DNA of 64,000 nucleotides from Hydrurus foetidus (taxonomy: Eukaryota), in the NCBI GenBank assembly GCA_900617105.1, contig UYFQ01000001.1, forward strand, positions 868,001 to 932,000. The letters are read 5' to 3'. Positions 22,348 through 38,469 of the stretch are shown in pieces. A model generated the notes under the pieces. It was not told the origin of the DNA. It saw only the letters and a list, made by a program, of their open reading frames with translations, and ran no database searches. The position numbers and the translations under genes were made by a program. Within the stretch, counting starts at the first letter, position 1; every line of letters begins with the position of its first letter.

Positions 22348-24282
22348 TTGAACAATCAGTGGTTTTCTAAAATGGCCGTATGGCTGGTAATCGCCCTTGT
22401 GCTTTTTACCGTTTTCAAACAATTTGACAACCGGGGTGGCGTTGCAAGTGCAGGCTATCTGGGTTACTCGGATTTTCTGGAAGAGGTGCGCGGTAAGCGC
22501 ATCAAAACCGCCACCATCTCTGAAGGCCAAGGCGGTTCTGAGATCTTGGCGACCACGGTGGACGACCGCAAGGTGCGTACCAACGCCACCTACCTCGACC
22601 GTGGCTTGGTGGGCGACCTGATCGCCAACAACGTCAAGTTCGACGTGAAAGCCCGCGAAGAAGGCTCGCTGTTGATGACCTTGTTGGTCAGCTGGGGCCC
22701 CATGCTGCTGTTGATCGGCGTTTGGGTGTACTTCATGCGTCAAATGCAAGGCGGTGGCAAGGGCGGGGCGTTCAGCTTTGGCAAAAGCAAAGCCCGCTTG
22801 CTCGATGAGAGCAGCAACACCGTCACCTTCGCTGATGTGGCCGGTTGCGACGAAGCCAAAGAAGAAGTCAAAGAAGTCGTCGATTTCTTGAAAGACCCCA
22901 CCAAGTTCCAAAAACTCGGTGGCCGCATCCCCCGTGGTTTGCTGCTGGTTGGCCCCCCCGGCACCGGTAAAACCTTGCTCGCCAAGAGCATTGCGGGTGA
23001 AGCCAAAGTGCCTTTCTTTTCGATCTCAGGCTCTGATTTCGTTGAGATGTTTGTCGGTGTCGGTGCATCCCGCGTGCGTGACATGTTTGACAACGCTAAA
23101 AAGAACGCGCCTTGCATCATCTTTATCGACGAAATCGACGCTGTAGGCCGCCAACGTGGTGCCGGCGTGGGCGGTGGTAACGACGAGCGTGAGCAAACCC
23201 TGAACCAAATGCTGGTGGAGATGGACGGCTTTGAGACCAACGTCGGCGTGATCGTCGTCGCAGCCACCAACCGCCCCGATATTCTGGATGCCGCTTTGCT
23301 GCGCCCTGGCCGCTTTGACCGTCAGGTTTACGTCACGCTGCCTGATATCCGTGGCCGTGAGCAAATTTTGAACGTCCACATGCGCAAAGTGCCTGTCAGC
23401 CAAGACGTGAACCCCATGGTGATCGCCCGTGGCACCCCTGGCATGAGCGGGGCTGATTTGGCCAACCTGTGCAACGAAGCCGCCTTGATGGCAGCCCGCC
23501 GTAATGCCCGTGTCGTGGAAATGCAAGATTTTGAGAAAGCCAAAGACAAAATCTTCATGGGCCCCGAGCGCAAGAGCATGGTGATGCCCGAGGAAGAGCG
23601 CCGCAACACGGCTTACCACGAGTCTGGCCATGCGTTGCTGGGCAAAATTTTGCCTAAATGCGACCCCGTACACAAAGTCACTATCATCCCCCGTGGCCGC
23701 GCCCTTGGCGTCACAATGAGCCTGCCAGCGCAAGACCGCTACAGCTACGACCGCGACTACATGTTGTGCCAAATCAGCATGTTGTTCGGTGGTCGCATCG
23801 CAGAAGAAGTGTTCATGAACCAAATGACCACCGGTGCCAGCAACGATTTTGAACGCGCCACCAGCATCGCCCGCGACATGGTGACGCGCTACGGCATGAC
23901 CGAGGCGCTCGGGCCCATGGTTTATGCTGAAAACGAAGGTGAAGTCTTCTTGGGCCGTTCCGTCACCAAGACCACGACCATGAGCGAGCAAACCATGCAA
24001 AAGGTGGACGGCGAAGTGCGCCGCATCATTGATATGCAGTATTCGCTGGCCCGCAAGCTGATCGAAGACAACCAAGACAAAATGCACGCCATGGCCAAAG
24101 CCTTGCTGGAATGGGAAACCATCGACAGCGACCAGCTTGACGACATCATGGCCAACAAGGAGCCGCGTGCGCCCAAAGACTGGACACCTCGCGTACCACC
24201 CGCTGCGAGTGGTGGTACAGGGACAGGCAGTGGTGATGCCCCCGTCGCTGTCAAGCCAGACCCGGCACCGACAGCCGCGTAA
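22348..24282 (+). CDS. ftsH: ATP-dependent zinc metalloprotease FtsH
   Basis: Two TMs, [22 protein letters not shown] zinc motif. Confidence 0.99.
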
Positions 24283-24391
24283 ATTCACTGAAACCGCCGG
24301 GCCTAGGGGTCAGGGGTATTGAGGCAGGGGGCAATTCCCTGACTTTGATGCCACTGACCCTTTTCCGTTTTTGTTCCATAAGTTTTGTACG

Positions 24392-25267
24392 ATGCTCTGG
24401 CAAACCACCCGCTTTTCCATTGACCTGTCGCAACCCCAAATCATGGGCATCGTCAACGTCACCCCTGATTCTTTCTCAGATGGTGGTCAGCACGCTGACC
24501 ACCGCACCGCCTTGGCGCACTGCGAGCAACTGCTGCGCGATGGTGCCCATATCTTGGACATAGGCGGTGAATCCAGTCGCCCTGGTGCGCCGCCCTTGCC
24601 GTTAGAGGACGAATTGGCCCGCGTGCTACCCGTCTTGCGCGATGCTTTGACGCTGGGTGTACCCGTCTCGCTAGACACCTACAAACCCGCCGTGATGCAA
24701 GCTGCACTGGATTTGGGCGCTGACATCATCAACGACATTTGGGCGCTGCGGCAAGCGGGTGGGAACGTCGTAATGGGCGCATTCAACGCCGTTGATGTGA
24801 TTGCCCAGCATCCACGCTGCGGTGTTTGCCTGATGCACATGCACGGCGAGCCACAAACCATGCAACTCACACCGATGGCCGGGGCGGGTGTAGCAGAGGA
24901 GGGCGTGGTCGCTGAAGTGCTCTCATTTTTAGAGCTAAGAACATCCATCCTGCAAGTGAAAGGCGTAGATAAAGCACGCATTGCCTGGGACATGGGCATT
25001 GGCTTTGGCAAAACTATCGCACAGAACTTCAGCCTGCTCCAGCACCAAGCAGCACTCACCCACAGCGGATACCCGATACTCGCCGGTTGGTCGCGCAAGT
25101 CGTCGCTGGGCGCTGTCACCGGCTTGTCCGTTGATCAGCGCTTGGTGCCCAGCGTGGTCGCCGCACTGCTCGCCGTGCAGCAAGGTGCCCGCATCGTGCG
25201 TGTTCACGATGTGCGCGAAACGGCAGCCGCATTGCAGGTCTGGCAAGCGATGCTGGCCCAAGCTTAA
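24392..25267 (+). CDS. folP: Dihydropteroate synthase
   Basis: MGIVNVTPDSFSDGG, DIGGESSRPG, SRKS, RVHDV. Confidence 0.97.
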   Translation: MLWQTTRFSIDLSQPQIMGIVNVTPDSFSDGGQHADHRTALAHCEQLLRDGAHILDIGGESSRPGAPPLPLEDELARVLPVLRDALTLGVPVSLDTYKPAVMQAALDLGADIINDIWALRQAGGNVVMGAFNAVDVIAQHPRCGVCLMHMHGEPQTMQLTPMAGAGVAEEGVVAEVLSFLELRTSILQVKGVDKARIAWDMGIGFGKTIAQNFSLLQHQAALTHSGYPILAGWSRKSSLGAVTGLSVDQRLVPSVVAALLAVQQGARIVRVHDVRETAAALQVWQAMLAQA

Positions 25268-25331
25268 AACGTATCTAAAACTGATTTAGAACCCTTTTCA
25301 AAACCTTTTTCGCCCTTCTTTGGAGAGATAC

Positions 25332-26669
25332 ATGACCCGTAAATACTTTGGCACCGACGGCATCCGTGGCACCGTAGGGCAAGCGCCCATCACCCCCGAT
25401 TTCGTACTGAAGCTGGCCCACTGCGTAGGTCGGGTTCTCAGGCAAACAGAAGAACGCCCGACCGTCGTCATCGGCAAAGACACCCGTATTTCCGGCTACA
25501 TGTTGGAAAGCGCATTGGAGTCTGGCTTCAACTCCGCCGGTGTCGATGTGGTGTTGCTCGGCCCGCTGCCTACACCCGGTGTCGCCTACCTCACCCGTGC
25601 CCTGCGGGCCAGTTTGGGCGTGGTGATCTCTGCCAGCCACAATCCTTACCCCGACAACGGCATCAAATTCTTCAACAAACAAGGTGCCAAGCTCGACGAT
25701 GCCTGGGAAACCGCCGTCGAAGCTCTGCTGGAAGAGCCACCCCAATGGGTCGATTCCCACTCAGTAGGCCGTGCCCGCCGCCTCGACGACGCTGCTGGCC
25801 GTTACATCGAATTCTGCAAAAGCACCTTCGCCAATGATTTGACACTCAAAAACCTGCGCATCGTGGTCGATGGTGCTAACGGCGCGGCGTACCACATCGC
25901 CCCCATGGTGTTCCACGAGTTGGGGGCCGAGGTCATCTCCATTGGCTGTAGCCCCGATGGCTTCAACATCAATGACGATGTCGGTGCCACCCACCCCAAA
26001 GCTTTGATACAGGCCGTCAAAGCCAACCGCGCCGATTTCGGCGTAGCACTTGATGGCGATGCCGATCGCCTGCAACTGGTGGACTCTAAAGCCCGTCTCT
26101 TCAACGGCGATGAGGTGCTTTACTTGATGGCCGTTGAGCGCTTGGCACGGGGCGAAAAAGTCCCCGGTGTCGTTGGTACGTTGATGACGAACATGGCTGT
26201 GGAACTCGCCCTCAAAGCCAAGGGTGTGCAGTTCGTGCGCGCCAAAGTAGGTGACCGCTATGTGCTCGAAGAACTGGAGAAAAATGGCTGGCTCCTGGGT
26301 GGTGAAGGCTCAGGCCATTTGCTGGCGCTCGACAAACACACCACTGGCGACGGGCTGATCTCCGCGCTGCAAGTGCTCCAAGCCTGTGTGCGCAGCGGCA
26401 AAACCCTGGCTGAGCTGATGCACGGTTTGGTGCTGTTCCCGCAAGTGCTGCTGAACGTGCGCCTGCAACCCGGCTACCAAGATTGGAAAAGCAACACCCA
26501 CTTGGCCGAAGTCACCCAAGCCGTGGAAGCTGAGTTAGGCGACACTGGCCGCGTGCTGATCCGAGCCAGCGGCACCGAGCCTTTGTTGCGCGTAATGGTG
26601 GAAGCGCGCGACGCACATATGGCTCAATCCTGCGCTGACAGATTGGTACAAGCCGTGAAGGTTAATTGA
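25332..26669 (+). CDS. glmM: Phosphoglucosamine mutase
   Basis: [34 protein letters not shown]. Confidence 0.98.
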
Positions 26670-26833
26670 CCGCCCTGACCATCGCCAAAAGACAAGTAAC
26701 CTTCGTGTTTTTCACTGTGGCATTGCTCCCGTTTGGGCAATATGTCACACGATTTATTGGCATGAAAACCACCTGAAAATCAGGCTTTTTCGATAAACTG
26801 TGCGAATGTGTCGCACTGCCCATCGAGCCCAAC

Positions 26834-27640
26834 ATGCATGACCGCACTGAGGTCTCTGACACTCACGCTGATACGCTGACTGCCGGTGCAGTGAGCGCCA
26901 AGTTCACCGCGCCTCGGGTGGATCCCTTCTTTGCTTCAGCCCATGCGCACATGGGGCACCCGATGAGGCGGCGTAAAACCGATCACACTGACGCTACAGC
27001 CCGCCCAGCACCCGCCAATCCCCCAGCACTGCACATGTACTTGATGCGCATGCTCGATGAAATCGACTACGGCCTCATCTTGCTGGATGTCAAAGGTGCC
27101 ATCTGGCACGCCAACCATTTAGCCCGGTCTGAGCTGGGGCGAGGTCAAGTGCTGCATGTGGAGGAGGGCCGCTTGAACACCCGCGTAGCCGCCAAAAAAG
27201 CAGCCATGCAGCAAGCCATCTACCGCGCCAGCCAAGGTGTGCGCAGCATGATTGACCTGCGCCACCCCCCAGACGACCTTTCCGCCATTGACCACCCCGG
27301 AACCAGCGTCGCCTTCGTCCCTATGGGCCACCCCGCCGAAGCCTACCCCAATGCCCTGCCAGTGCTTGCCATCACATGCAGGCAAGTCATGTGCGAGCAA
27401 ATCAGCCTGCATTTTTTCGCCCAAAGCTATGGCTTGACCAGCACCGAAGAAGCGGTTCTGGCAGCGCTTTCACAAGGGCTGGATGTTGATGATATCGCCA
27501 AACAGCGTGCGCTTGCCCTGTCAACGGTGCGCACCCATGTGAAGCAACTGCGTGTCAAAACGCAGTGCCGCAGCATGCGTGAACTGCTGAACAAAGTGTC
27601 TGTGCTGCCGCCGGTGGTGTCGTCGATCAAGGCATTTTGA
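26834..27640 (+). CDS. LuxR-family HTH regulator with PAS-like region
   Basis: C-terminal GLTSTEEAVL...IAKQR..STVRTHVK HTH; central LDEIDYGLILLD...HAN segment. Confidence 0.85.
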   Translation: MHDRTEVSDTHADTLTAGAVSAKFTAPRVDPFFASAHAHMGHPMRRRKTDHTDATARPAPANPPALHMYLMRMLDEIDYGLILLDVKGAIWHANHLARSELGRGQVLHVEEGRLNTRVAAKKAAMQQAIYRASQGVRSMIDLRHPPDDLSAIDHPGTSVAFVPMGHPAEAYPNALPVLAITCRQVMCEQISLHFFAQSYGLTSTEEAVLAALSQGLDVDDIAKQRALALSTVRTHVKQLRVKTQCRSMRELLNKVSVLPPVVSSIKAF

Positions 27641-27675
27641 GCGTGGCTGCTGCACTTCGATCCTGAATCCGTCCC

Positions 27676-28044
27676 TTATCGCCCGATGAGCAATTTGAGC
27701 GCATCTTCAATGCGTTTGAGATGATTCACACTTAACATTGCCAAAGGTTGAGTGCCCATGAATCGTTTGTTGGAGATGGCGCGAATTTGATCTATGAGCA
27801 GATCCGTTTCTTGCACCAAGCCCAGTTGGTTGACCAAAGCCACACGAAGCGGAAAGTAGTCTTTGTCACGCTTAACTTTGGTGGTGCCCATCACCACGAT
27901 GGTGGTCGGATGCCCGTTTGTATTTAAAAGATCGGTCTGGATGACCAGTGCAGGGCGATTGCGTTTACCTGGTTCTTCTTTATGGGTTTGCGGCTCTAGG
28001 TTGACCTCCCAGATTTGCCCACGCAACACCTTAATCAAGGCCAT
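27676..28044 (-). CDS. MazF/PemK family endoribonuclease toxin
   Basis: RGQIWEVNLEP..EPGKRNRPALVIQ, DQIRAIS..RF. Confidence 0.92.
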   Translation of the reverse strand: MALIKVLRGQIWEVNLEPQTHKEEPGKRNRPALVIQTDLLNTNGHPTTIVVMGTTKVKRDKDYFPLRVALVNQLGLVQETDLLIDQIRAISNKRFMGTQPLAMLSVNHLKRIEDALKLLIGR

Positions 28045-28261
28045 CTGCCAGAGATCCTTCCAGGGACTCGTTGAAAGCGAGGTGTTCAGCAGACAGCTCT
28101 TTGGAGAGCATGGCAATGCGCTGCGCCATCACCTGTGCATTTTTTTCAGAAACTGCTTGGCGCATGTAATCTGAACTCTTGAGACCGACGATGCTGGCGA
28201 GTGACCTTACTTGTTCGGCGAAGTCGCTGCCGGCCCGAAATGAAAGTGTGGTGGCATGCAT
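28031..28261 (-). CDS. Ribbon-helix-helix antitoxin of the MazF-type toxin
   Basis: 76 aa, TLSFR...SSDYMRQAV RHH-like pattern, acidic C-terminus, overlaps toxin start. Confidence 0.78.
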   Translation of the reverse strand: MHATTLSFRAGSDFAEQVRSLASIVGLKSSDYMRQAVSEKNAQVMAQRIAMLSKELSAEHLAFNESLEGSLADGLD

Positions 28262-28348
28262 GGTTATTTCCTTGTGATCGAAATTTGTTAGTTAAATTGT
28301 AATGCGTTTATTGCAATACATTTTTTTGACAAAACAAGGGAGCTTGGC

Positions 28349-28536
28349 GTGGTGGGCGATTTTTGCCCTGCCTGTGCAGAAGTCGTGCTCACCATGCCAG
28401 AGGCGAGGCACTATGGGCGCTTAACGCCTTTTCACGCTACGAAAATGGCAGAATCAAGCCACCTTTGGCTCTGGTGAAGTTGCTGAAAGTATTGGACAAG
28501 CCCCCTGATTTGTTGAGTGAGGTGAGAGCGGCGTGA
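28349..28536 (+). pseudogene. Remnant of MqsA-family antitoxin
   Basis: Hand translation: VVGDFCPACAEVVL in one frame, then NAFSRYENGRIKPPLALVKLLKVLDKPPDLLSEVRAA* in another; N-terminus and middle missing. Confidence 0.8.
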
Positions 28537-28641
28537 GACAGCTCAATGCGCACGCATCCCCTCAGTGGCCAAGTCAATGACTTCGCCCTTGCGCTGTAAA
28601 ACAAACATACCGCGCTTTTGCGCTAATTTGACAACGTCCAG

Positions 28642-28906
28642 CGCATATCGTTATACACAACTCAAAAATTTGCCTGAAACCATTTTTTGAAGTTCCGCTA
28701 AGTTGTTGATTTTTATAGATCGAGATGACTCAGAGCAGGGAAACTGAGTTAACGTAAGTCATTGATTTTGCTGAAGAAAAAAGTTGTGCATAACGATATG
28801 CGTCAAAACCCCTTGACTGGGCATGCAGCGCGTTATTGACTTCGCTGCTGGTATCCGATTCTCGCGGGAACTTCAGGCTCTGGAGATTTGTGTATAACGA
28901 GATGCA
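28642..28906. repeat. Three ~21-bp repeats (one inverted, two direct) with two IHF consensus boxes
   Basis: CGCATATCGTTATACACAACT (28642-28662), AGTTGTGCATAACGATATGCG (28782-28802), ATTTGTGTATAACGAGATGCA (28886-28906); WATCAANNNNTTR on minus strand at 28699-28711 and 28755-28767. Confidence 0.85.
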
Positions 28907-28918
28907 TTAAACCAGCGA

Positions 28919-29950
28919 TTACAGAATACCTTGTTTGCACAAAATGGTATCAATCGTTACTGCGCTGACGGCGACGTTTTTGACGGCATATTCTCCTCCA
29001 AAATGCATTCCAATTACATGACCTGTGACCATATCGAGTAAAGGAGAGCCAGAGTTACCGACTAAAGTTGAACAATCATGAATCAGGTTTTCTTTGGAAG
29101 TTCCCGGTGCGTAAACCAACCCAGGGCAGGCACGCTTGACTCCATAGATGTGCTCAAAAATCGCATCTACAACCATAAGCGTATTTCCTTTTTCATTGGT
29201 CAGTGCGGGATATCCGAGCGTCACAATTGGCTTATTGACTTCAATCGGATCAAGCAACAATTTCAAGGGCCTAATACCTGTATTTTCTGCTGAAAGCTCC
29301 AGCACAGCGATGTCTGGATCGTTCTCGCTTGCCATGTAGGTAATCTTTGCAATTTCAATACATTGAGATTTCCGAATAGGATCTTCGTACTCGAGATCAA
29401 TCGCTACTTTGTACGATGAACGAAAAAAACCGCTTCCTTTTACCCCCTCAATAGCATGTGCAACATGCCTATTAGTCACGATATGACGCTGGGTGACAAA
29501 CCATCCTGTACCCAAGTGATCTAGGTTTGGGCCATCAAAATTCAACACGATAATGCGCCCAATCGCAGGTATTGCAGCGTTAACTGTCGATTTTTTTTCG
29601 AGCAATAAATTAGCCCAGCTATCTTCGCTTTTCAACGTTGATAAATCAATTTTTTCATCCCGTACAAACAGTGCTGGCCTGTTCACAGCGCATTGAATTG
29701 CTTCAGTACTAGGGGCTGGTTTTTTGAAGATGCCACCCGTTTGTAAAACTATTCTCCCAGGGCCAAAGATAACCTTAATATCTTTGCCCGATAAATCGCC
29801 AACCACATGGTAAGGATTGAAGCCACGAAGTGCCAAGAACCGACTTCGAAACTCATCGTTATTCAATAGTTGTAACTCATACACAGGACATTCTCCAAAA
29901 ACTACAAGGTCAAATTCGGTTACTGCTGCTGGGAATGCGTTTCTTTGCAA
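28919..29950 (-). CDS. Trypsin-like (S1) serine protease
   Basis: Triad VTNRHVA (His), PDIAVL (Asp), HDCSTLVGNSGSP (Ser); GTGW, LGYP, IGMHFGG; start uncertain. Confidence 0.9.
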   Translation of the reverse strand: MQRNAFPAAVTEFDLVVFGECPVYELQLLNNDEFRSRFLALRGFNPYHVVGDLSGKDIKVIFGPGRIVLQTGGIFKKPAPSTEAIQCAVNRPALFVRDEKIDLSTLKSEDSWANLLLEKKSTVNAAIPAIGRIIVLNFDGPNLDHLGTGWFVTQRHIVTNRHVAHAIEGVKGSGFFRSSYKVAIDLEYEDPIRKSQCIEIAKITYMASENDPDIAVLELSAENTGIRPLKLLLDPIEVNKPIVTLGYPALTNEKGNTLMVVDAIFEHIYGVKRACPGLVYAPGTSKENLIHDCSTLVGNSGSPLLDMVTGHVIGMHFGGEYAVKNVAVSAVTIDTILCKQGIL

Positions 29951-31838
29951 ACCCTCTTCGTACTATTGGTGGCACTTTGAGTGCTGGAGTCGAACCTTTA
30001 TCCAATCGTGCAAACAATGGTGTGGCAAAACTGGTGCCGACTCCGCGTTGCACGCCGCTGCCGTAGTGGGTTATGCTCATCGTGCCATGATTGGATGGCA
30101 GCTCTTCTGTGGGCGCTAAAAAGTCTGGGCCACTGGGCTTGACACCGTTTCGACCTGTTCCATCGCAAGAATACTTGGCTCTGTCGAAATTTCCCCAGTC
30201 CTCGTAGCCACCGATCAACTTGCTGGCGGCAAAACAACCTGCGCCCCAAATGGCGGTGGCTTGGCCCACTTGAACGCTTCTATTGCTGATGGCTTGGGGT
30301 GAGGCGATCAAGCGAGGCGACCACATCCGTTGAACAAATCCAATATTCTGCCCTCCCCAGTGCGTATAGAGATTGATTTCTTTGGGAGCTTCGTTAACGC
30401 TTTTGCTAATTGAAAAACGAAGCTTCCATACACCCGATTGACCTCGTGGAACAAGGCTGTCATGGGTGCAAGGCATCACGTGGATCAAAATTTGCCATTG
30501 CTTTTGCATACCGTCAGGGCAAGGGTGCTCTTTGACTACGGCTGTTGCTCCGTAGGGACTTCCAATCGACAGGTTGGGCATGACATTGCCGTCTTTTAAA
30601 ACAAGTTGCGTGACTTCCCCCCCTGCTGGGGCAAATACCTCAATGGTCAAATCAACGATGGAGTGAGTCCAGAGGTCAAGTGTAGATTCTGCGGCTTGTC
30701 CGCGTGGCACATACCAGCCAGTTTCGACAGAAGTCGTATTAACGGCATCCAGTTTCACAATAGCGCTGCTGCGGTTCTCATAGTTATTGCCTATAGGGAA
30801 TACGAGGTCTAGCGTTATGCCGAAGAGCGCTTGCGCTGCCTTAACCCGAAGCTGCATCGCCCGCCCAAACCAGGATGAACCATCGTGAGGCCCCATTTCT
30901 GTGCCGTAATCAATCACGACAGAGACGTGAGCGTCCCGTGCCGCACTTGCAATGATGTAATCTACCGCATCCAATACACTTCTCTCAATGAAACGGGGCA
31001 CTGGGGCTATATGAAATCCACGTGGAAGTTGCACAAAGATCAAGTCTGTTTTTGGCTCTTGCTCTTTTGACCTATCGTTTTGCCAATACTCTGAGGGCCG
31101 TGTGTGGGTTGCCGCGCTTCGGTCAGGCCGCAAGCCACGCGCCAGCAGGCCCAGCACCAATGAGCCATGCGATATTCGGTGACGCATGGCAGCATTGCTA
31201 CTAAGGCGATACAAACCCTCTATCCCAATACCCGGTGGCTTTGCACTGGCTGGCGTATCAAGCCAGCCCTGAATATCTGATCGCGCGACTTGACGCCCAT
31301 AGCCCAAACCTTCAGGCCGTGATCCCCCCATAAAATCAGGCGCAGAGTCTTGATCCCATATCGCTTGTATGACCGTTTTTCTACCATCCGTTGTTTGTCG
31401 CTGAAGCAAAGGGTGCCCAAACGGACAACCGTGATCGATGACGGCAAGTAGCCGCTTGCTGGTGCTTTTAAGTATGGGAGCTTCAGTAGCGGGAGGGCTT
31501 TGGTGACGGGGAGAAAGCGGGCGTGCAACGACGGGTGCATTACACAATTGAATAGAAAGACACCAAAATTGATTAGATAGCCATTCCAAGCCATGCCATG
31601 TAACTTCGCCGGTAAAAAAAGCCTTATTTTCTGCGCCTAAAGTCCACAGACCTAATGAGGAATACGTGAGGTTTTTGGCAAGTTTTTGCAGTTCAAGCAC
31701 CTGCTTAGCTGCCTCAATATCCTCAGCCTGAACTTCAATTCCAACAGGCATCATGCTAAAAGCTTCAGACGGATTATTCTGCGTCTGGCACTGAGAAACC
31801 AGAATCAACAGCATGGGGTCAAACTTGCTGGTTTTCAT
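29910..31838 (-). CDS. Divergent subtilisin-like (S8) serine protease
   Basis: AVIDHG (Asp), HGSLVLGL (His), IGN (oxyanion Asn), PDFLAP, GTSFATP (Ser); long insertion between Asn and Ser motifs. Confidence 0.85.
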   Translation of the reverse strand: MKTSKFDPMLLILVSQCQTQNNPSEAFSMMPVGIEVQAEDIEAAKQVLELQKLAKNLTYSSLGLWTLGAENKAFFTGEVTWHGLEWLSNQFWCLSIQLCNAPVVARPLSPRHQSPPATEAPILKSTSKRLLAVIDHGCPFGHPLLQRQTTDGRKTVIQAIWDQDSAPDFMGGSRPEGLGYGRQVARSDIQGWLDTPASAKPPGIGIEGLYRLSSNAAMRHRISHGSLVLGLLARGLRPDRSAATHTRPSEYWQNDRSKEQEPKTDLIFVQLPRGFHIAPVPRFIERSVLDAVDYIIASAARDAHVSVVIDYGTEMGPHDGSSWFGRAMQLRVKAAQALFGITLDLVFPIGNNYENRSSAIVKLDAVNTTSVETGWYVPRGQAAESTLDLWTHSIVDLTIEVFAPAGGEVTQLVLKDGNVMPNLSIGSPYGATAVVKEHPCPDGMQKQWQILIHVMPCTHDSLVPRGQSGVWKLRFSISKSVNEAPKEINLYTHWGGQNIGFVQRMWSPRLIASPQAISNRSVQVGQATAIWGAGCFAASKLIGGYEDWGNFDRAKYSCDGTGRNGVKPSGPDFLAPTEELPSNHGTMSITHYGSGVQRGVGTSFATPLFARLDKGSTPALKVPPIVRRGFAKKRIPSSSNRI

Positions 31839-31839
31839 G

Positions 31840-33015
31840 TCAATGATCCTCGCCGTTCAACCACCACCATTCAGCGCGTGCAGCCTCCCAAATGAGCTGC
31901 CATTCCAGGCACTTTTGGATACCGTTGGGCGAGGTCTGTGAGTTGGTGGTTGCGATCCATTTCTTGCTATTTGGATCGTAGGCCGTCACATCAAAATTTT
32001 CACCATTGAAGCTGTAACCGGCAAATATCTTGCTATCGGGAATCGGATATCCATCCGAATAATCACTCTTTACGCTACTGGCAGATGTGAATAAGTATTC
32101 CTCTAGCCATTCAGCCAGTGCAATACCTGCAAACAGATCAATCGGAAAATGCACACCCGCCACAATGCGGTTTTCGCTGACCCGCCATGCCAATGCCCGC
32201 AGCTGTTTACTTAAAGAGTCCCAAGAATCCTTGGGGCCTGATTTTTCAAAGGGATCTGTCAATCGCTCGAACAACATTGCCGCTACAAACGACTCACAGG
32301 CATGGCCCATCGGGTAGCTGCTGTGCACAGGCGTGCGCACCATAGGCTGAACTTGCGGCGACAATTCCACGGGTCGCGCGCAAGCCATTTCGTGCTTGAG
32401 TCGCATATAGACCGCCTGTGCCACCTCATGCGCGATCTTCATCACCAGATGTGTGTTGGGTGCTTGATCGGGGCTACGAGGCAGGATAGACCAGAAGAAA
32501 CTCCCAATATCAGTGACCTGTGCCAATATTTCAGAAGCCCTGTCATCACGCAGGTCGGCATCGGCGATCACATCAGGCAGCTCCTCTCGGAGTCTTTTCG
32601 TTGTTGGACGTTTCATGGTCAACACCGAAACATTGCTTATGGCAACAGTTACGCTGGAGTGATCCACAGCAACCTTGTAGTTGATATTGCTCAAGAGTTG
32701 CGGGGCCACGATGGCCGTGATGACGGAGTCGTCTAATTTAGCAAGGCGATTTTTGGTATTGCGAAAGTGATCACTGTCATACGTGGGAAAGTCTGGTGTC
32801 AAATCAGGTTTTCCACTTGTTGCATCGGGTTCATCGTAAGTTGTTGAGTCACCAGGAGCCACAATGGCATCGCGACTTCTGCGTAGAGCTTCTGCAACGC
32901 TCACCACCCCAAGCCATGTCCCTCCTGCCGCCCCACCCGCTGCACCGCCAGCCGCTCCCCCGGCAGCCCCACCAGCTGCGCCTCCTGCTGCACCACCTTC
33001 TGATCTAAAAGTCAT
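31840..33015 (-). CDS. PAP2/vanadium-haloperoxidase superfamily protein with N-terminal (GGAA)6 repeat
   Basis: KHEMACARP (Kx6RP), SYPMGH (PSGH-like), NRIVAGVHFPID (Rx5Hx3D); RBS AGGAGAG upstream. Confidence 0.88.
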   Translation of the reverse strand: MTFRSEGGAAGGAAGGAAGGAAGGAAGGAAGGTWLGVVSVAEALRRSRDAIVAPGDSTTYDEPDATSGKPDLTPDFPTYDSDHFRNTKNRLAKLDDSVITAIVAPQLLSNINYKVAVDHSSVTVAISNVSVLTMKRPTTKRLREELPDVIADADLRDDRASEILAQVTDIGSFFWSILPRSPDQAPNTHLVMKIAHEVAQAVYMRLKHEMACARPVELSPQVQPMVRTPVHSSYPMGHACESFVAAMLFERLTDPFEKSGPKDSWDSLSKQLRALAWRVSENRIVAGVHFPIDLFAGIALAEWLEEYLFTSASSVKSDYSDGYPIPDSKIFAGYSFNGENFDVTAYDPNSKKWIATTNSQTSPNGIQKCLEWQLIWEAARAEWWWLNGEDH

Positions 33016-33060
33016 TTTTCTCTCCTGGTTAAAAACAATGAAATAGCACCCTTAAAGCAT

Positions 33061-34935
33061 TCAGAAGCCCACAGCTTTCAAGGCTTCGTAAACACGCAAA
33101 CGGGCTTGGCTGTTTGCATTGCCAAGCGCTTTGTAAGATTCCAAGGACAGATTGGGACTCACCAGGCGCAACCTTCTTGCGGTTGTTTTTGCGCCTAGCA
33201 TGTCGCCGCTTTCGACTTGCGATAGCACAATAGTGCGAAGCGAAGGCGCATGGTTACGATCCAAACGCAGGCAGCGTTGGGCAATTTCAATGGCGCTGGC
33301 ATATTGCCGGTCAAAGGCCAGAGCACTGCATAAAACAGCATCGAAGAAGTGGCCTATAGGGTCAAGCGGTGATAGTGTTCGAGCGCGTAACGCATCGTTG
33401 ACGGCTTGGCCTGTGTCACCCCAGTGTTGCGACCAGACACTTTTATAGAGCCACCCTTGTGCATCGTTTGGCGCAAGTTTGAGTGCCTGGTCAAGCGCTT
33501 TCAGCGAGGCTTCACTGTCGCTGAAATTCTGAGAAAGCACATAACCCTTGATCGCGTGTGCGGCAGCAAGATCAGGAAACCGAGCCAGTGCAGAGTTACA
33601 GGCGCTTAACGCGCTCTGAGCATCTCTTTGTGGATCATCACTTAATCCCCGAATTACTCTCAAAACATGCCATTTCCCTATCCATGCTAGCGGTTCGGCA
33701 AGACGAGAGCAGCGTTCGGTAAGAGCCGTCAAAATCAATGATGATTTGTTGAAGTCCCGTAAGTTTGAAGAGTGCAGTAAATAGACGCCGCTCATTTGCA
33801 AGGAATAGGCCGCGAGCGTCTCTAACGGTGCAATCCAGGCTTTTTCAATTTCATGCCGTGAAAGAGCCGCGTGACAGCTTTGGGCCAATCGATCTGCCGT
33901 CTCGGACTCCAGACTCAGCAAGTCAGTGACAGAACCATGAAAACGCTCACTCCAGATCACATGCCCATGTTTGGTGTCAATCAGTTCGCATGTGATCAGC
34001 AGTTGATCGCCAATGGATCCCCGTGCGATCTGTGCGTATTTACCTGTTACCACGTAATTAGCATTCAAACCAGACAAACCAACAGCGACTTGATCTTGGC
34101 GATTTCGGAGATGGGCTGTTGACAGTCGAGTAACGACGTTGAAAGACTGACTGCGCACTAAACGACCAATCACGCCATCGGCGATGAGATCTCCGATGAC
34201 CAGTTGATCGACTTGGTCACTCATTGCGTTAAAAGGAACAATGGCGAGGGTGGGCCGTAACATGGCCGTGTCTTCATACTTTCCAAAAAGCACAGGCCGT
34301 GGCCCTGCTGGCCCCACTCGATATGCACGCACAGGCTCAGCGATGTGCTTCAGGTAGCACTCGCCCATGTCGTCCACTTCGGCGTCCAGTCCATCCGTCA
34401 ACTGATCGCGCACGCTGGCGCTGACGATGGTTTCACCGGGGCCGGCCAATCCGGCTAAGCGGGCGGCCAGGTTGACGCCGCTGCCGTAAATATCGTCGTT
34501 GCCCACATACACCGGGGTGGCGTTGATGCCGATGCGCAGGAACAGGTGCTGTTCGGGGTCGCGGCCAAGGTTCGCGGGTTTGATGATCTGGTGCAGGGCC
34601 AGGGCGACTTGCACGGCATCGCGGGAATGGTTGAACTCTGCCAGCAGGCCGTCGCCCAGGCTTTTGACGACGCGGCCGTTGTAGCGGGGGATCAATGCAT
34701 TGGCCTTTTGCACGAAGACCGTCCACCGCGCCACTGCGCCGCTTTCGTCTTGTGCCATCAAGTGCACGGATTCGACCAAATCCATCAAAAGCACCACCTT
34801 GTCCACCCTGGGTAACGCCGGGCCATCGTCATACGCACCAGTGGCCGAATTCACGGCGTTGGCAGCCACATCTGGCTCGTGCAGTGGCTGGGTGTTGATG
34901 GTGACAGGGGAGGAGGTGTTTGCGTTGGATGGCAT
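33061..34935 (-). CDS. Class III adenylate/guanylate cyclase with TolB-N-like and TPR domains
   Basis: LMDLVES, VKSLGDG, LRIGI, DIYGSGVNLAARL; LAIVPF; helical repeats ending ALKLAPND, ARTLSPLD, CLRLDRNH. Confidence 0.92.
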   Translation of the reverse strand: MPSNANTSSPVTINTQPLHEPDVAANAVNSATGAYDDGPALPRVDKVVLLMDLVESVHLMAQDESGAVARWTVFVQKANALIPRYNGRVVKSLGDGLLAEFNHSRDAVQVALALHQIIKPANLGRDPEQHLFLRIGINATPVYVGNDDIYGSGVNLAARLAGLAGPGETIVSASVRDQLTDGLDAEVDDMGECYLKHIAEPVRAYRVGPAGPRPVLFGKYEDTAMLRPTLAIVPFNAMSDQVDQLVIGDLIADGVIGRLVRSQSFNVVTRLSTAHLRNRQDQVAVGLSGLNANYVVTGKYAQIARGSIGDQLLITCELIDTKHGHVIWSERFHGSVTDLLSLESETADRLAQSCHAALSRHEIEKAWIAPLETLAAYSLQMSGVYLLHSSNLRDFNKSSLILTALTERCSRLAEPLAWIGKWHVLRVIRGLSDDPQRDAQSALSACNSALARFPDLAAAHAIKGYVLSQNFSDSEASLKALDQALKLAPNDAQGWLYKSVWSQHWGDTGQAVNDALRARTLSPLDPIGHFFDAVLCSALAFDRQYASAIEIAQRCLRLDRNHAPSLRTIVLSQVESGDMLGAKTTARRLRLVSPNLSLESYKALGNANSQARLRVYEALKAVGF

Positions 34936-35131
34936 ACCTCAAATTGTGGAGGAACTCGCTGACTGCGCCAAGGTGTTTATGCGGAGAAAAGGGCGCAACC
35001 GACCCTTAAAGCGCAAAAACCTACCCAATTTTGGGGAGAAGATTTGCTTTTTCTCCCCCATTTTGGGGATGCAGAAAAGTTCTGCCATTGGTTCAATGAA
35101 GGCTCCCTCGTTCACCCTATAGGAGTCTTCC

Positions 35132-36796
35132 ATGTCCACGATTGCAACCTCAACCGCTTCCGCCCAGAAGCTGCGTCAACTCCACTTCGCCTTTGCCGCC
35201 GTTGCGCTGGCAAGCCTTGCTGCTTGCGGTGGCGGGGGGGACGACAGCGCAGTCGCTGCGACACCCAGCCCGGCCCCTGTGGCGGCTGTACCGACACCAG
35301 CGCCTGTTCCCGCACCAGCCCCCGTCGTTGTGCCCGCGCCTACACCCGTCGCCGTCACCGGCAAAGTCATCATCAACCAAGGCATCAAAAACGCCATGGT
35401 TTGCATGGACTTGAATGCCAACAGCCTGTGCGATACCGGCGAGCCAGCATCTGCTGCAACCGGCGCTGATGGCACGTACACCCTCAGTTACGACCCCAGC
35501 GCCATCACCGCCTTGCAAGTGGCTGCTGCACCCATGCTGGCGATGATCGGCACGGATGCCGTAGACGCTGCTGATGCAACGGCAGTCAAAACCAAAAGCT
35601 ATGTGATGATGGCCCCCGCTGGCCGGCCCGCCCAAATCAACCCGCTGACCACACTGGTGCAAACCGGCATCGCCTCTGGCCTGAGCATGGCGCAGTCTCG
35701 TGCTGCGGTGGTGGTGCAATTGGGTATTTCCGATGCCGATATTGACGACTATCAAGCCAATGCCTCAGATCCCAAAATGTTTTTGGACAATGCCCGCAAC
35801 ATGGCTGGTCTGACCGATTTGGCGCTGCAAGCCGGTGACAAACTCAATGTGATCGACATTGCCGCCACGTCGGCTGTTGGAGACCAGTTGGCACAATTTA
35901 ACTTGACCGATGGCAACAACTTCTTCATTCGCACCTTCTCAAGTGCGGATATAGCAGGCACCGGCAAGAGCTTGTTGACCGATTCCCGCCGAGGCATGAC
36001 GACAGGGCGAACCTCCACGCAACTCGAACTCTACGGTGCCCAGGCTTACCTGACTCCCAGCGGCTGGCAGACTTGTAGCGGTAGCTTCGAGGGAACACGG
36101 GGTACGCCCAGTCGATCGACTTACTGTGGTGGCTTGCCATCAGCGGGTTACACCATCAGCACCGATATTTCCGGCAAATTGATGGCTGATGTGGTGAAAT
36201 CCATGCAAGCGGCAACCGATGGCAGCAACACCATCAACATGAATGCGGACGTGCTGGCAACGCAAACCTTTCCCGCAGGATCGAGCTTGTACAAACGCGC
36301 CAATGCCAACCTCGGTCAAGCCATCTATATCAACAACCTCAACTCCACCAATGAAGTGGGTGTGGCTGGAGGGGTAACCAGCTTGGAGGCCTTCATTGCT
36401 GCGCGCCCCAACAGCAGCGCGAACCTGACCACGGGTGCTGGCATGGTCTATACCGGTAACGCCGTGGACACCAGCCATTGGCTGATGGCTTCGTTCGTGG
36501 ATGCTGTAAGCCAAGTGCAGTACTACAGCTGCACCTTCAATACGGCGGCGACCTCCATCACGGGCTGCGTGGCCATCAACACCGGCACGTACAGCATCAA
36601 AACAGTGAATGGCGTGCGCTTGATCGCCTTTGCGGGTCAACCCGCCAATCCACTGAGCTACACCACGGGCTATGCCGAGTACAAAGGTGGTGTCGCACGT
36701 TACCGCATGAACGCTGCAAACTCCAGCAGCATTAGCCAACGCCTCAATGGCACAGCGTGGGATGCCATGCTCAAGTTTTTGAATCTGCGAGGCTGA
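35132..36796 (+). CDS. Large lipoprotein of unknown function
   Basis: Lipobox LAAC-GGGG, Pro/Ala/Val linker, VCMDLNANSLCDTGEP and INPLTTLV segments; RBS AGGAG. Confidence 0.8.
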   Translation: MSTIATSTASAQKLRQLHFAFAAVALASLAACGGGGDDSAVAATPSPAPVAAVPTPAPVPAPAPVVVPAPTPVAVTGKVIINQGIKNAMVCMDLNANSLCDTGEPASAATGADGTYTLSYDPSAITALQVAAAPMLAMIGTDAVDAADATAVKTKSYVMMAPAGRPAQINPLTTLVQTGIASGLSMAQSRAAVVVQLGISDADIDDYQANASDPKMFLDNARNMAGLTDLALQAGDKLNVIDIAATSAVGDQLAQFNLTDGNNFFIRTFSSADIAGTGKSLLTDSRRGMTTGRTSTQLELYGAQAYLTPSGWQTCSGSFEGTRGTPSRSTYCGGLPSAGYTISTDISGKLMADVVKSMQAATDGSNTINMNADVLATQTFPAGSSLYKRANANLGQAIYINNLNSTNEVGVAGGVTSLEAFIAARPNSSANLTTGAGMVYTGNAVDTSHWLMASFVDAVSQVQYYSCTFNTAATSITGCVAINTGTYSIKTVNGVRLIAFAGQPANPLSYTTGYAEYKGGVARYRMNAANSSSISQRLNGTAWDAMLKFLNLRG

Positions 36797-36893
36797 TTCG
36801 CACAAACGCCCAAGCATCACGTCACAACACCCCGCGTTTCGAGGGCCGTCAAGACCACCGAGATTGGGGTTTCGCGTGACTTGGCGGTTTTAC

Positions 36894-36926
36894 GCCCCAC
36901 GTACCTTGTGTGCATGGGGCTTTTTT
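36894..36926 (+). terminator. Intrinsic terminator after lipoprotein gene
   Basis: GCCCCACGTAC-CTTGT-GTGCATGGGGC followed by TTTTTT. Confidence 0.7.
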
Positions 36927-37071
36927 GCGAGCTGAGGTGGGTGGATAGCAAGGGTAAACACGGGCTTTCAAAGCCATCAAACTGTCTCGTTCGGCCACCC
37001 TGTGCCGCGCTAAAAAACTTACGATAGTGCCCTTGATCCCACGTTTGACAACACCCAGGAGACAGCACCCC

Positions 37072-37665
37072 ATGAACGCCCGCGCTACCTTCACCCGCAT
37101 GGACATCAGCACCAAAGAGGACTGGATGGCCATCGTCCCCGAGGCGATGAAGATGAACAAAACCCTGCCAGACCGTGTGCTCGATCACCTCAAACTTCTC
37201 GATGGCGATTACGGTGGCTTCCCCATCGACCGCTACAGCCACTGCTTGCAAACCGCCACCCTCGCACTGCGCGATGGCCGAGACGAAGAGTACGTGGTGT
37301 GTGCACTGCTGCACGACATTGGCGACACGCTGGGTTCTTACAACCACCCAGATATTGCGGCGGCAATTTTGAAGCCCTTTGTGAGCGATGCCAACTTGTG
37401 GATGGTGCAAAACCACGGCATCTTTCAGGGCTACAACTTCTTTCACCATATCGGTATGGACCGCAATATGCGTGACATGTTCACCGGCCACGAACATTAC
37501 GCCCGTACCGAAGAGTTCATCGCGCTGTACGACAACCCGGCGTTTGATGCTTCCAAAGAGATTTTGCCCATCAGCGAGTTCGAGCCTATGGTGCGCCGCG
37601 TGATGGCTGCGCCTAAAAACACCATCTACAAAGCAGCCCTGAGCGCTGCCCCAGTTGCAGCCTGA
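37072..37665 (+). CDS. HD-domain protein (PhnZ-like)
   Basis: HCLQTATLA, VVCALLHDIGD, NHP, NHG conserved His pattern. Confidence 0.8.
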   Translation: MNARATFTRMDISTKEDWMAIVPEAMKMNKTLPDRVLDHLKLLDGDYGGFPIDRYSHCLQTATLALRDGRDEEYVVCALLHDIGDTLGSYNHPDIAAAILKPFVSDANLWMVQNHGIFQGYNFFHHIGMDRNMRDMFTGHEHYARTEEFIALYDNPAFDASKEILPISEFEPMVRRVMAAPKNTIYKAALSAAPVAA

Positions 37666-37713
37666 ATTCCCACCCCTTCGCCCCTTTCGCCGCCCCACAG
37701 AAACTGAATCACC

Positions 37714-38469
37714 ATGAACATCCCCTCCCTGAAAAACAGCGTCAGTCCCGAAGAATGGCAACTGCGCGTTGATCTCGCCGCCTGCTACCGCTTGATCGCC
37801 GCCTACGGCTGGAGCGATTTGGTGTTCACCCATGTCAGCGCCCGCGTACCCGGCACCGATCACCACTTCCTCATCAACCCTTATGGCCTGATGTTTGACG
37901 AGATCACCGCGTCAAGCCTCATCAAAATCGACTTGCAGTGCAACAAGCTGAGCGAATCGCCTTTCCCTGTGAACCCCGCAGGTTTCACCATCCACGGCTG
38001 CATCCACGCCGTGCGTGATGACGCGGGTTGCGTGCTGCACACCCACACCCGTGCTGGCATTGCCGTCAGCGCCCAAAAATGCGGCGTGCTGCCTTTGAGC
38101 CAGCAGTCCACCTTCGTGCTGGGTTCACTGGCCTACCACGACTACGAAGGCGTGGCGCTGCATGAAGGCGAAAAACCCCGATTGCAAGCCGACTTGGGCC
38201 GTGCCAATTACCTGATGCTGCGCAACCACGGATTGCTGACAGTGGGGCGCACCATTCCCGATGCGTTTTTGCACATGTACACGTTTGAGAACACCTGTCG
38301 CATCCAAATTGATGCGCAAGCCGGTGGCGAGCTGCACCAGATTGCACAACCTGTGATTGACCTCAACGGCACCATCATGAAAGTTGCCACAGCAGGGCAG
38401 GGTGCAGCACTGACATGGCCTGCTTTGCTGCGCAAGCTTGATCGGATGGATGAGAGCTACAAGACCTGA
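37714..38469 (+). CDS. Class II aldolase/adducin family protein
   Basis: DLAACYR, FLINPYG, HTHT, LRNHG. Confidence 0.92.
   Translation: MNIPSLKNSVSPEEWQLRVDLAACYRLIAAYGWSDLVFTHVSARVPGTDHHFLINPYGLMFDEITASSLIKIDLQCNKLSESPFPVNPAGFTIHGCIHAVRDDAGCVLHTHTRAGIAVSAQKCGVLPLSQQSTFVLGSLAYHDYEGVALHEGEKPRLQADLGRANYLMLRNHGLLTVGRTIPDAFLHMYTFENTCRIQIDAQAGGELHQIAQPVIDLNGTIMKVATAGQGAALTWPALLRKLDRMDESYKT

Follow-up and report, generated by a model that had tools for sequence, protein, structure and literature searches.

A conserved proteobacterial module of a cyclase-TPR sensor, a repeat-tailed PAP2 enzyme and a Csp-like subtilase: a candidate peptide-coded switch

What is the purpose of an operon in which a nucleotide cyclase fused to tetratricopeptide repeats (TPR) stands beside a PAP2-superfamily enzyme whose N-terminus repeats one short peptide without error, and beside two serine proteases? 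The question is raised by a minus-strand locus of the window, the stretch of 64,000 nucleotides analyzed here (positions 868,001 to 932,000 of contig UYFQ01000001.1, assembly GCA_900617105.1), which is deposited under Hydrurus foetidus and for which the gene neighbors suggest a Comamonadaceae-type betaproteobacterium as the carrier. A first-pass annotation had proposed a new system of all four genes. Three of these do recur together, but the four-gene version with two proteases fails, given that the trypsin-like protease does not accompany the others elsewhere. The conserved unit is thus made up of a cyclase-TolB-like-TPR sensor, a soluble PAP2 enzyme and a Csp-like S8 subtilase, which probably works as a peptide-coded signaling switch similar to the RRNPP systems. 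This reading is based on the linkage of the three genes, their intact catalytic residues, the perfect array, the joint exchange of the array and the C-terminal TPR, and the interchangeable outputs and proteases.

The linkage was assessed in 96 loci, comprising four plasmid loci, the best 80 of 258 genome loci by PAP2 alignment, and 12 metagenome loci obtained with an S8 alignment as the query. The S8 gene lies directly behind the PAP2 gene in all 92 scorable loci, and a co-oriented TPR sensor precedes the PAP2 gene in 85 of 88, in 79 of them with a cyclase, with a divergent TPR gene being present in the other three. This co-occurrence spans alpha- and betaproteobacteria, and the sensor subfamily occurs once in each of four Comamonadaceae-type genomes that were checked, as one full-length strong match. 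The neighborhood also includes regulators, with a CRP-family protein bearing a cyclic nucleotide-binding domain within 1.5 kb in 49/96 loci (47 of the 80 cyclase-type loci) and a LuxR-type regulator within 2.5 kb in 47/96, although Hydrogenophaga is over-represented among the loci behind both counts. The trypsin-like protease was rejected as a member, with 0/96 loci having it and 0/138 when a homologue profile was used (80 of the 96 loci offer at least 1 kb after the S8 gene), and the query was not found in 301 genomes of the family at E 1e-12. Its 118 relatives are at most 38% identical, some of them being fusions with a non-specific endonuclease domain. The window's protein may be a recruited second protease.

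The PAP2 protein scores above the Pfam PAP2 cut-off and has the motifs KHEMACARP, PMGH and NRIVAGVHFPID. The catalytic motifs had been described as intact in all four proteins, which holds for the cyclase and the S8 protease (D52/K91/D95/D148/N155/R159 and D135/H224/N351/S603, all present, and each conserved in 65-78 of 78 aligned homologues across the two proteins), and the H-D-S triad of the trypsin is visible, but motif II of the PAP2 protein is P-M-G-H rather than PSGH. Among 126 PAP2 loci, which include the window and of which at least five repeat earlier loci, this position is Met in 32 and Ser in 79.

A perfect array opens the PAP2 protein in 116 of these 126 loci, with 4-16 copies (median 8) of a unit of 3-6 residues, and 60 different units were found among the 116. 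Of the remaining 10 loci, two run off their contigs, and in most the array is shorter, imperfect or made of poly-Gly. Neighboring units differ synonymously in a median of 67% of their codons, with identical DNA units in only 2/116 loci; the array DNA is therefore not a microsatellite, and the perfection of the units at the protein level over diverged codons argues for selection that keeps the peptide exact. Lys, Arg, Asp and Cys are absent from all 60 main-branch units, and distant loci have such residues (DAR, AGR, NK). Two further PAP2 N-termini (L144:2805-4175, minus; L162:4610-5932, minus) have imperfect spaced repeats with NPPV and PNYAA cores, respectively, which are closer to ordinary multi-core precursors than to the perfect arrays.

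When the unit of the array changes, the C-terminal TPR of the neighboring sensor changes with it. The 78 loci with the whole triad and an array gave 39 disjoint nearest pairs, and the test set comprised 20 pairs with a background identity of at least 0.70 in which the C-terminal TPR could be measured, a frameshift having led to the loss of one pair. The TPR segment of residues 456-624 falls below the background in 12/12 pairs with different units vs 0/8 pairs with the same unit (Mann-Whitney p 1.6e-5), and no such difference was observed for the cyclase, the TolB-like domain, the N-terminal TPR or three S8 regions (p 0.13-0.36). At the DNA level, six different-unit pairs have an identity of about 50-70% across the array and the final 300-500 bp of the sensor gene, and mostly 80-99% on either side, and three same-unit pairs present no drop over the TPR; the exchanged block is about 400-700 bp long. 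At a comparable synonymous divergence of 0.43-0.56, the TPR amino acid change reaches 17-44% in four pairs with different units and 4-13% in three pairs with the same unit. One unpublished genome (G150, locus L109) contributes one row each to the 138 loci, the 126-locus counts, the 60 units and the 56/301 genomes cited below, and lies outside the pair tests.

Three genomes have two arrayed copies of the module, and the units differ between the copies in each of them, while both copies of a fourth two-copy genome lack perfect arrays. Dialects within a species were not seen, with one genome per species in the collection, and the NSF unit is found in 6/6 Phaeobacter plasmids from three species, the sensor C-terminus being identical in the 5/5 compared. 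A complex prediction of TPR residues 371-624 with PAP2 residues 1-48, in which the alignment was not used, scored 0.01 and is evidence in neither direction.

The outputs and the protease are both interchangeable. The N-terminal domain of the sensor varies across loci between the cyclase, an OmpR-type winged helix-turn-helix (wHTH, in Phaeobacter) and SARP/BTAD. In distant, weaker-scoring PAP2 loci that were fetched separately for a comparison of the protease slot, the place of the S8 gene after a sensor and an arrayed PAP2 gene is taken by a peptidase A4 (glutamic peptidase) in three and by a papain-like C1 protease in one (L146, L149, L159 and L148), and given that unrelated folds replace S8, the proteolytic step appears to matter more than the enzyme family. 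Three other weak matches (L163, L164, L166) were set aside as unrelated PAP2 genes with no sensor. One Phaeobacter sensor (L001:7483-9546) has a wHTH ahead of a cyclase domain that seems degenerate by eye, and may be an intermediate between the cyclase and DNA-binding outputs. Split or frameshifted sensor or S8 genes were also observed in L131 (the Phaeobacter inhibens M647 plasmid), L027, L062 and L095, and some copies of this type are decaying or mis-assembled.

In the proposed switch, the S8 protease would cleave the GGAA repeats from the PAP2 protein, and the released peptide would bind a matched groove in the TPR superhelix of the sensor, where R408 is invariant (77/77) and R567 is present in 76/77 aligned sensors; these two residues would suit a free peptide carboxylate or a phosphate. 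The cyclase domain, which has two metal-binding Asp residues, an adenine-specifying Lys/Asp pair, the Asn/Arg pair and a class III fold that best matches the adenylyl cyclase Ma1120, is predicted to make cyclic AMP (cAMP) for a CRP-family transcription factor, and the peptide would control it in one direction or the other. The CRP and LuxR-type proteins would then change transcription. The PAP2 part would most likely alter the signal chemically or help turn it over, or would itself be switched on by the removal of its tail.

Several observations weigh against this switch. The PAP2 core also shifts slightly when the unit changes (p 0.031), the close pairs are Hydrogenophaga-heavy, and synonymous sites are more diverged in the exchanged block as well, which suggests that the block was imported by recombination; as the C-terminal TPR and the array are adjacent on the DNA, their co-exchange alone could be hitchhiking. 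The S8 protease remains unchanged when the unit changes and therefore cannot read each unit specifically. No CRP gene is found in the window. A link between TPR residue 499 and 3-mer vs 4-mer units (31/33 vs 1/44) was discarded, given that it comprises only 3-5 independent contrasts and is not significant after correction for a FastTree tree of the PAP2 core and S8 (77 rows, free of 6-mers). Among the distant loci, no protease was identified beside the arrayed PAP2 gene in L147, L162 and L165, and L145, L160 and L161 have a sensor and a PAP2 gene with neither an array nor an identified downstream protease, with a CRP gene directly behind in two of them. The joint absence of array and protease in the latter three speaks for the switch, but the existence of sensor and PAP2 pairs with no array, together with the arrayed loci that have no identified protease, means that the sensor may read the product of the PAP2 enzyme instead.

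A peptide-coded switch could act within the cell or between cells. The diversity of the alleles and the insulation of paralogues fit communication between cells, and the missing signal peptide and missing conserved exporter fit an internal switch. It is possible, as a tentative extension, that the module is a Gram-negative language of peptide quorum sensing or kin recognition with dozens of dialects, in which an enzyme-fused multi-copy precursor would be cut, and perhaps cyclized or capped by PAP2, into tiny leaderless peptides that are exported and read by a matched cytoplasmic TPR receptor, with cAMP or direct transcription as the outcome. These dialects would spread through swaps of a receptor-tip and peptide cassette, with whole cassettes being grafted onto resident cyclases, as in the window.

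The array might instead be a docking tag or an inhibitory propeptide on the PAP2 enzyme, held by the TPR inside the cell until one Csp-like cut frees or activates the phosphatase, much as CspB does with pro-SleC. The closest solved relatives of the S8 protease are indeed the Csp germination proteases (E 2.7e-13 to 9sj6, with a score far below the CspBA cut-off), the match spans the insertion between the Asn and Ser motifs, and a long N-terminal region precedes the catalytic Asp. The indifference of S8 to the unit would be expected if it cut only once, at a conserved site (motif AL..SR..I) that follows the array. No exporter family recurs across lineages in the flanks, and the first-pass annotation was right that a signal peptide or transmembrane helix is not evident, given that no 19-residue Kyte-Doolittle window exceeds 1.56 in any of the four proteins; the PAP2 protein reaches this maximum at residue 284 and has no basic-hydrophobic N-terminus. 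On the other hand, 60 alleles and the exchange of blocks would be superfluous for a tether that is private to the cell, the perfection of the units suits in-register processing better than docking, and one branch of the family carries RiPP tailoring enzymes, all of which makes the tether or zymogen unlikely.

A conflict or anti-phage system, in which the array would be the bait, the TPR the guard, and the cyclic nucleotide and proteases the route to dormancy or death, was one of two functions suggested earlier for the operon, and has a slim chance of being right. The patchy spread of the PAP2 family is in its favor (56 of 301 genomes in the family sample, a few of them weak matches, and 17 of 401 Pseudomonadota, centre genome included), as are the exchange of alleles, the 47 plasmid records that carry the family, the adjoining toxin-antitoxin (TA) module, and the endonuclease fusions among the trypsin relatives. 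However, it is transcription factors that recur beside the module, and in several lineages the sensor is a DNA-binding regulator in its own right. No toxic effector family recurs in the 4-kb flanks of the 96 loci, a common housekeeping-type gene is the upstream neighbor in 21 of them, and both the trypsin and the TA module are local. The system was considered unlisted, and PADLOC indeed returned partial, single-domain matches only (PycC, IetS, Avs1b, RT-protease XI). At 50% identity, the PAP2 family falls into 852 clusters (E up to 1e-30), and none of the 27 pattern matches in viral contigs is a relative, nor was any other found there.

The processing of the Gly/Ala extension by the proteases, which was the other suggestion, fared better through the repeat arrays, the replacement of the protease and the neighboring RiPP-type enzymes, but it had overlooked that the repeat and the TPR are matched. 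In its full form, it would make the module a source of ribosomally synthesized and post-translationally modified peptides (RiPPs), with the array as a multi-core precursor, PAP2 as the tailoring phosphotransferase or vanadium haloperoxidase, S8 as the releasing or cyclizing protease, a product that acts on other organisms, and the TPR protein as a feedback regulator only. The perfect multi-copy cores suit this, as do Rhizobium plasmids that encode a SARP-TPR sensor, a PAP2 protein with an (NK)n array, an S8 protease with a weak PatA/PatG match far under the cut-off, and, behind these, two further enzymes, one of the ThiF type and the other an aKG-HExxH peptide hydroxylase (72.5 bits against a cut-off of 40). 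Against it, the HExxH and ThiF enzymes are absent beside two other members of this branch, four of the 60 units, including the window's GGAA, consist of Gly and Ala only and offer no side chain for tailoring, and 23 of the 60 lack S, T, Y and H. The PAP2 protein is also nearest to the class A acid phosphatases (E 4e-16 to 7f17), with vanadium haloperoxidases ranking below them both by sequence and by fold: the model (mean pLDDT 62.6) matches the former at Z 17.8-14.6 (7f17 at Z 17.8, root-mean-square deviation 2.4 over 201 residues) and haloperoxidases at Z of at most 11.7 (bromoperoxidase at Z 11.7, deviation 3.5 over 201 residues). A RiPP product is thus improbable for the module.

The copies on the Rhizobium plasmids pRltTA1D and pRL12 (L132, L135 and L136) have LNKS or (NK)n arrays, 66 Rhizobium records match this PAP2 protein, and the loci look like an undescribed RiPP-type cluster common on plasmids of the R. 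leguminosarum group. For the homologues in R. johnstonii 3841 (pRL120625-627, tags assigned by position), a suspected link to quorum sensing was not confirmed: a search returned no paper with these tags, and they have no occurrence in the main text of PMC4149787.

Finally, it is very improbable that the array is a neutral low-complexity linker in an operon of an ordinary cAMP regulator and two unrelated enzymes, with pure hitchhiking behind its link to the TPR, since, despite their physical adjacency and the raised synonymous divergence in the block, the protein repeats are perfect over diverged codons, excess amino acid change is found only with a different unit, and the protease is replaced by unrelated folds.

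The features of the locus are listed in the following table.

Features of the sensor/PAP2/S8 locus and its surroundings, in window coordinates
Feature	Position	Strand	Remarks
Sensor gene	33061-34935	minus	624 aa; core member 1
Sensor domains			class III cyclase aa 43-207; TolB_N-like alpha/beta aa 225-370; TPR superhelix aa 376-621
Approximate recombination junction in sensor gene	34290-34330	minus	putative; resident-type cyclase upstream, imported cassette downstream
C-terminal TPR repeats, aa 456-624	33064-33570	minus	includes near-invariant R567; segment that varies along with the array unit among relatives
Soluble PAP2-superfamily enzyme	31840-33015	minus	391 aa; core member 2
(GGAA)x6 perfect peptide array, PAP2 aa 7-30	32926-32997	minus	six different 12-bp DNA units
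S8 subtilase, Csp-like by sequence	29910-31838	minus	642 aa; core member 3
Trypsin-like S1 protease	28919-29884	minus	321 aa from GTG 29884; local accessory, outside the conserved module
Inserted segment	27641-28904		antitoxin 28031-28261, PemK/MazF toxin 27676-28044, recombination-site-like repeat cluster about 28560-28910
LuxR-type HTH regulator	26834-27640	plus	recurring accessory locus member; outside the coordinates of the first-pass annotation
554-aa lipoprotein-like protein, uncharacterized	35132-36796	plus	divergent from the sensor gene; no Pfam family

The four reading frames match Guanylate_cyc, TPR and a weak TolB_N (sensor), PAP2, a weak Peptidase_S8 (E 0.06) and Trypsin_2 in Pfam. 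Their coordinates and the first two gaps (45 bp between sensor and PAP2, 1 bp between PAP2 and S8) stand as annotated, but the reported 41-bp overlap of the S8 and trypsin genes is an artefact of the longest-frame start. On the long form, the trypsin homologue profile reaches back about 58 positions from residue 81, i.e., to residue 23, and the most likely start is therefore GTG 29884, with GGAGAA upstream, which leaves a gap of 25 bp.

The operon is more AT-rich than the core genes, as had been pointed out (GC 0.55, 0.53, 0.51 and 0.43 for sensor, PAP2, S8 and trypsin, respectively, against 0.56-0.60 in the flanking core genes), but the drop starts inside the cyclase gene and not at the edge of the operon. 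The GC content at third codon positions (GC3) is 0.73-0.83 up to codon 180, 0.63 in codons 181-210, and 0.33-0.57 beyond. This drop coincides with the end of the match to locus L011 (unit NGSY), to which the cyclase domain is 79% identical in amino acids, with 25-45% identity in all downstream regions. In blastn, the cyclase domain aligns at 76.6% up to 34289, the LuxR gene at 70.3% (the window's copy being 64% identical to that of L011), and the PAP2 gene over only 113 bp. Given the GC3 step, the end of the blastn match and the contrast in protein identity, the locus is most simply read as one in which the TolB-TPR/PAP2/S8 cassette behind the resident cyclase domain was exchanged for a foreign one, making the window's sensor a chimera. 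The trypsin and the TA element would be later passengers at this locus.

The TA genes and recombination-like site reported next to the operon are present, with PemK/MazF next door and inverted repeats at 28642-28905. The inverted and direct repeats of the inserted segment resemble tyrosine-recombinase sites, and part of the repeat cluster, at the segment's right end, matches five other contigs of sequencing run X1, which makes the cluster a multi-copy mobile site. One X1 contig is identical to the window over 24000-38000 and may be its source, while near-identical short pieces of the module genes occur in three further runs from three other studies, and a contig of run X4 joins 27640 to 28905, skipping the 1264-bp TA and repeat segment (the letters between the two are not known). 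This segment occupies the usual position of the CRP gene in relatives. Neither a CRP gene nor a CRP remnant is present within the window, and L011 likewise has no adjacent CRP gene. A scan for CRP boxes over 26000-37200 gave eight loose matches, none of them ahead of the sensor gene; a loose match near the sensor start in 17/73 loci had no chance control and was not used, and a promoter scan (3 found vs 7.6 expected) was uninformative.

The divergent 554-aa protein resembles unnamed proteobacterial clusters in the Atlas, and its relatives (36-41% identity) stand beside LuxR or CRP genes near the module in L012, L039 and L091. It is a possible member of the regulon.

Gram-positive bacteria are known to use peptide signals with TPR receptors in the cytoplasm, and if the switch proposed here is correct, the Proteobacteria would gain a genetically encoded, allele-matched peptide code, and one group of orphan cyclase-TolB-TPR proteins would gain a ligand. 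Such ligands would be predictable from the sequence, natural non-cognate alleles are available at 90-99% background identity, cAMP would provide an easy read-out, and synthetic biology could make use of orthogonal peptide-receptor pairs. The three-gene module matches no PADLOC system beyond single domains, and targeted literature searches found no description of it, subscription journals and supplements being outside their reach. The design of the precursor, with perfect arrays of 3-4 residues fused to a phosphatase-fold enzyme, fits no known class found.

Compared with Pycsar, CBASS and the protease-coupled defenses in PADLOC, the similarity is limited to single domains, the PycC match covering the cyclase domain alone. 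The module differs in the adenine-specifying Lys/Asp pair, the TPR fusion and a CRP transcription factor as the putative receptor, and it lacks the cyclic-nucleotide-gated toxic effector that accompanies the cyclase in those systems.

Multi-core or enzyme-fused RiPP precursors include those of the cyanobactins (PatE/PatA/PatG), dikaritins, burpitides and borosins. The module shares with these the repeated cores, the fusion to an enzyme, the subtilisin-type release, and, in one branch, the HExxH and ThiF neighbors, but it has no leader or recognition sequences between the units and no common modifiable residue, and has an allele-matched receptor. No class-defining tailoring enzyme is present in the window, such enzymes (HExxH and ThiF) being found in the Rhizobium branch only.

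The rhizobial class III cyclase-TolB-TPR proteins and their CRP-like receptors are known as CyaF-type and Clr, respectively. They have the same order of domains and a neighboring CRP that binds cyclic nucleotides, and one Bradyrhizobium genome carries many such paralogues, but the subfamily of the module is tied to a PAP2 enzyme and a protease.

The PAP2 fold and its three motifs are common to the class A acid phosphatases (PhoN/PhoC; 7f17, 8yc1, 2a96) and the vanadium haloperoxidases (1qi9, 4usz, NapH3), from which the PAP2 protein of the module differs by the lack of a visible signal peptide, an additional N-terminal array, helix and beta segment, and the change from Ser to Met in motif II in its clade. 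The clostridial Csp subtilases CspA/B/C (PDB 9sj6, 4i0w, 6mw4) resemble the S8 protease in sequence, in the N-terminal region and in the insertion between the Asn and Ser motifs, which, in an excerpt of PMC3567191, is where the Csp jelly roll sits. In the module, however, there are neither spores nor SleC, the protease is paired with a repeat-tailed PAP2 enzyme, and the likeness is one of sequence alone.

The RRNPP systems of the Bacillota (Rap-Phr, PlcR-PapR, NprR-NprX, PrgX, ComR-XIP, AimR-AimP) would be the nearest in logic to the proposed switch, with a cytoplasmic TPR receptor that has an N-terminal output domain, a receptor gene directly beside the putative source of the peptide, and allele-matched peptides and receptors, as in the pherotypes of PlcR-PapR (PMC2441798, in part). 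The module is proteobacterial, a group whose signals are typically small molecules made by enzymes, according to an excerpt of PMC10075063. Its peptide would come from a 391-aa enzyme fusion that shows no Sec signal, with 4-16 identical units, it has a cytoplasmic protease of its own, its output is a cyclase, wHTH or SARP, and its receptor includes a TolB_N-like domain. The same excerpt lists five RRNPP criteria, i.e., a propeptide of 10-100 aa, secretion by Sec/PptAB, a receptor of 250-500 aa, TPRs, and adjacent genes. The module departs from three of these, with a precursor of 391 aa, no Sec/PptAB-type N-terminus by hydropathy and a receptor of 624 aa, and shares the other two, the TPRs of the receptor and the adjacency of the receptor and precursor genes (45 bp in the window; 85/88 loci).

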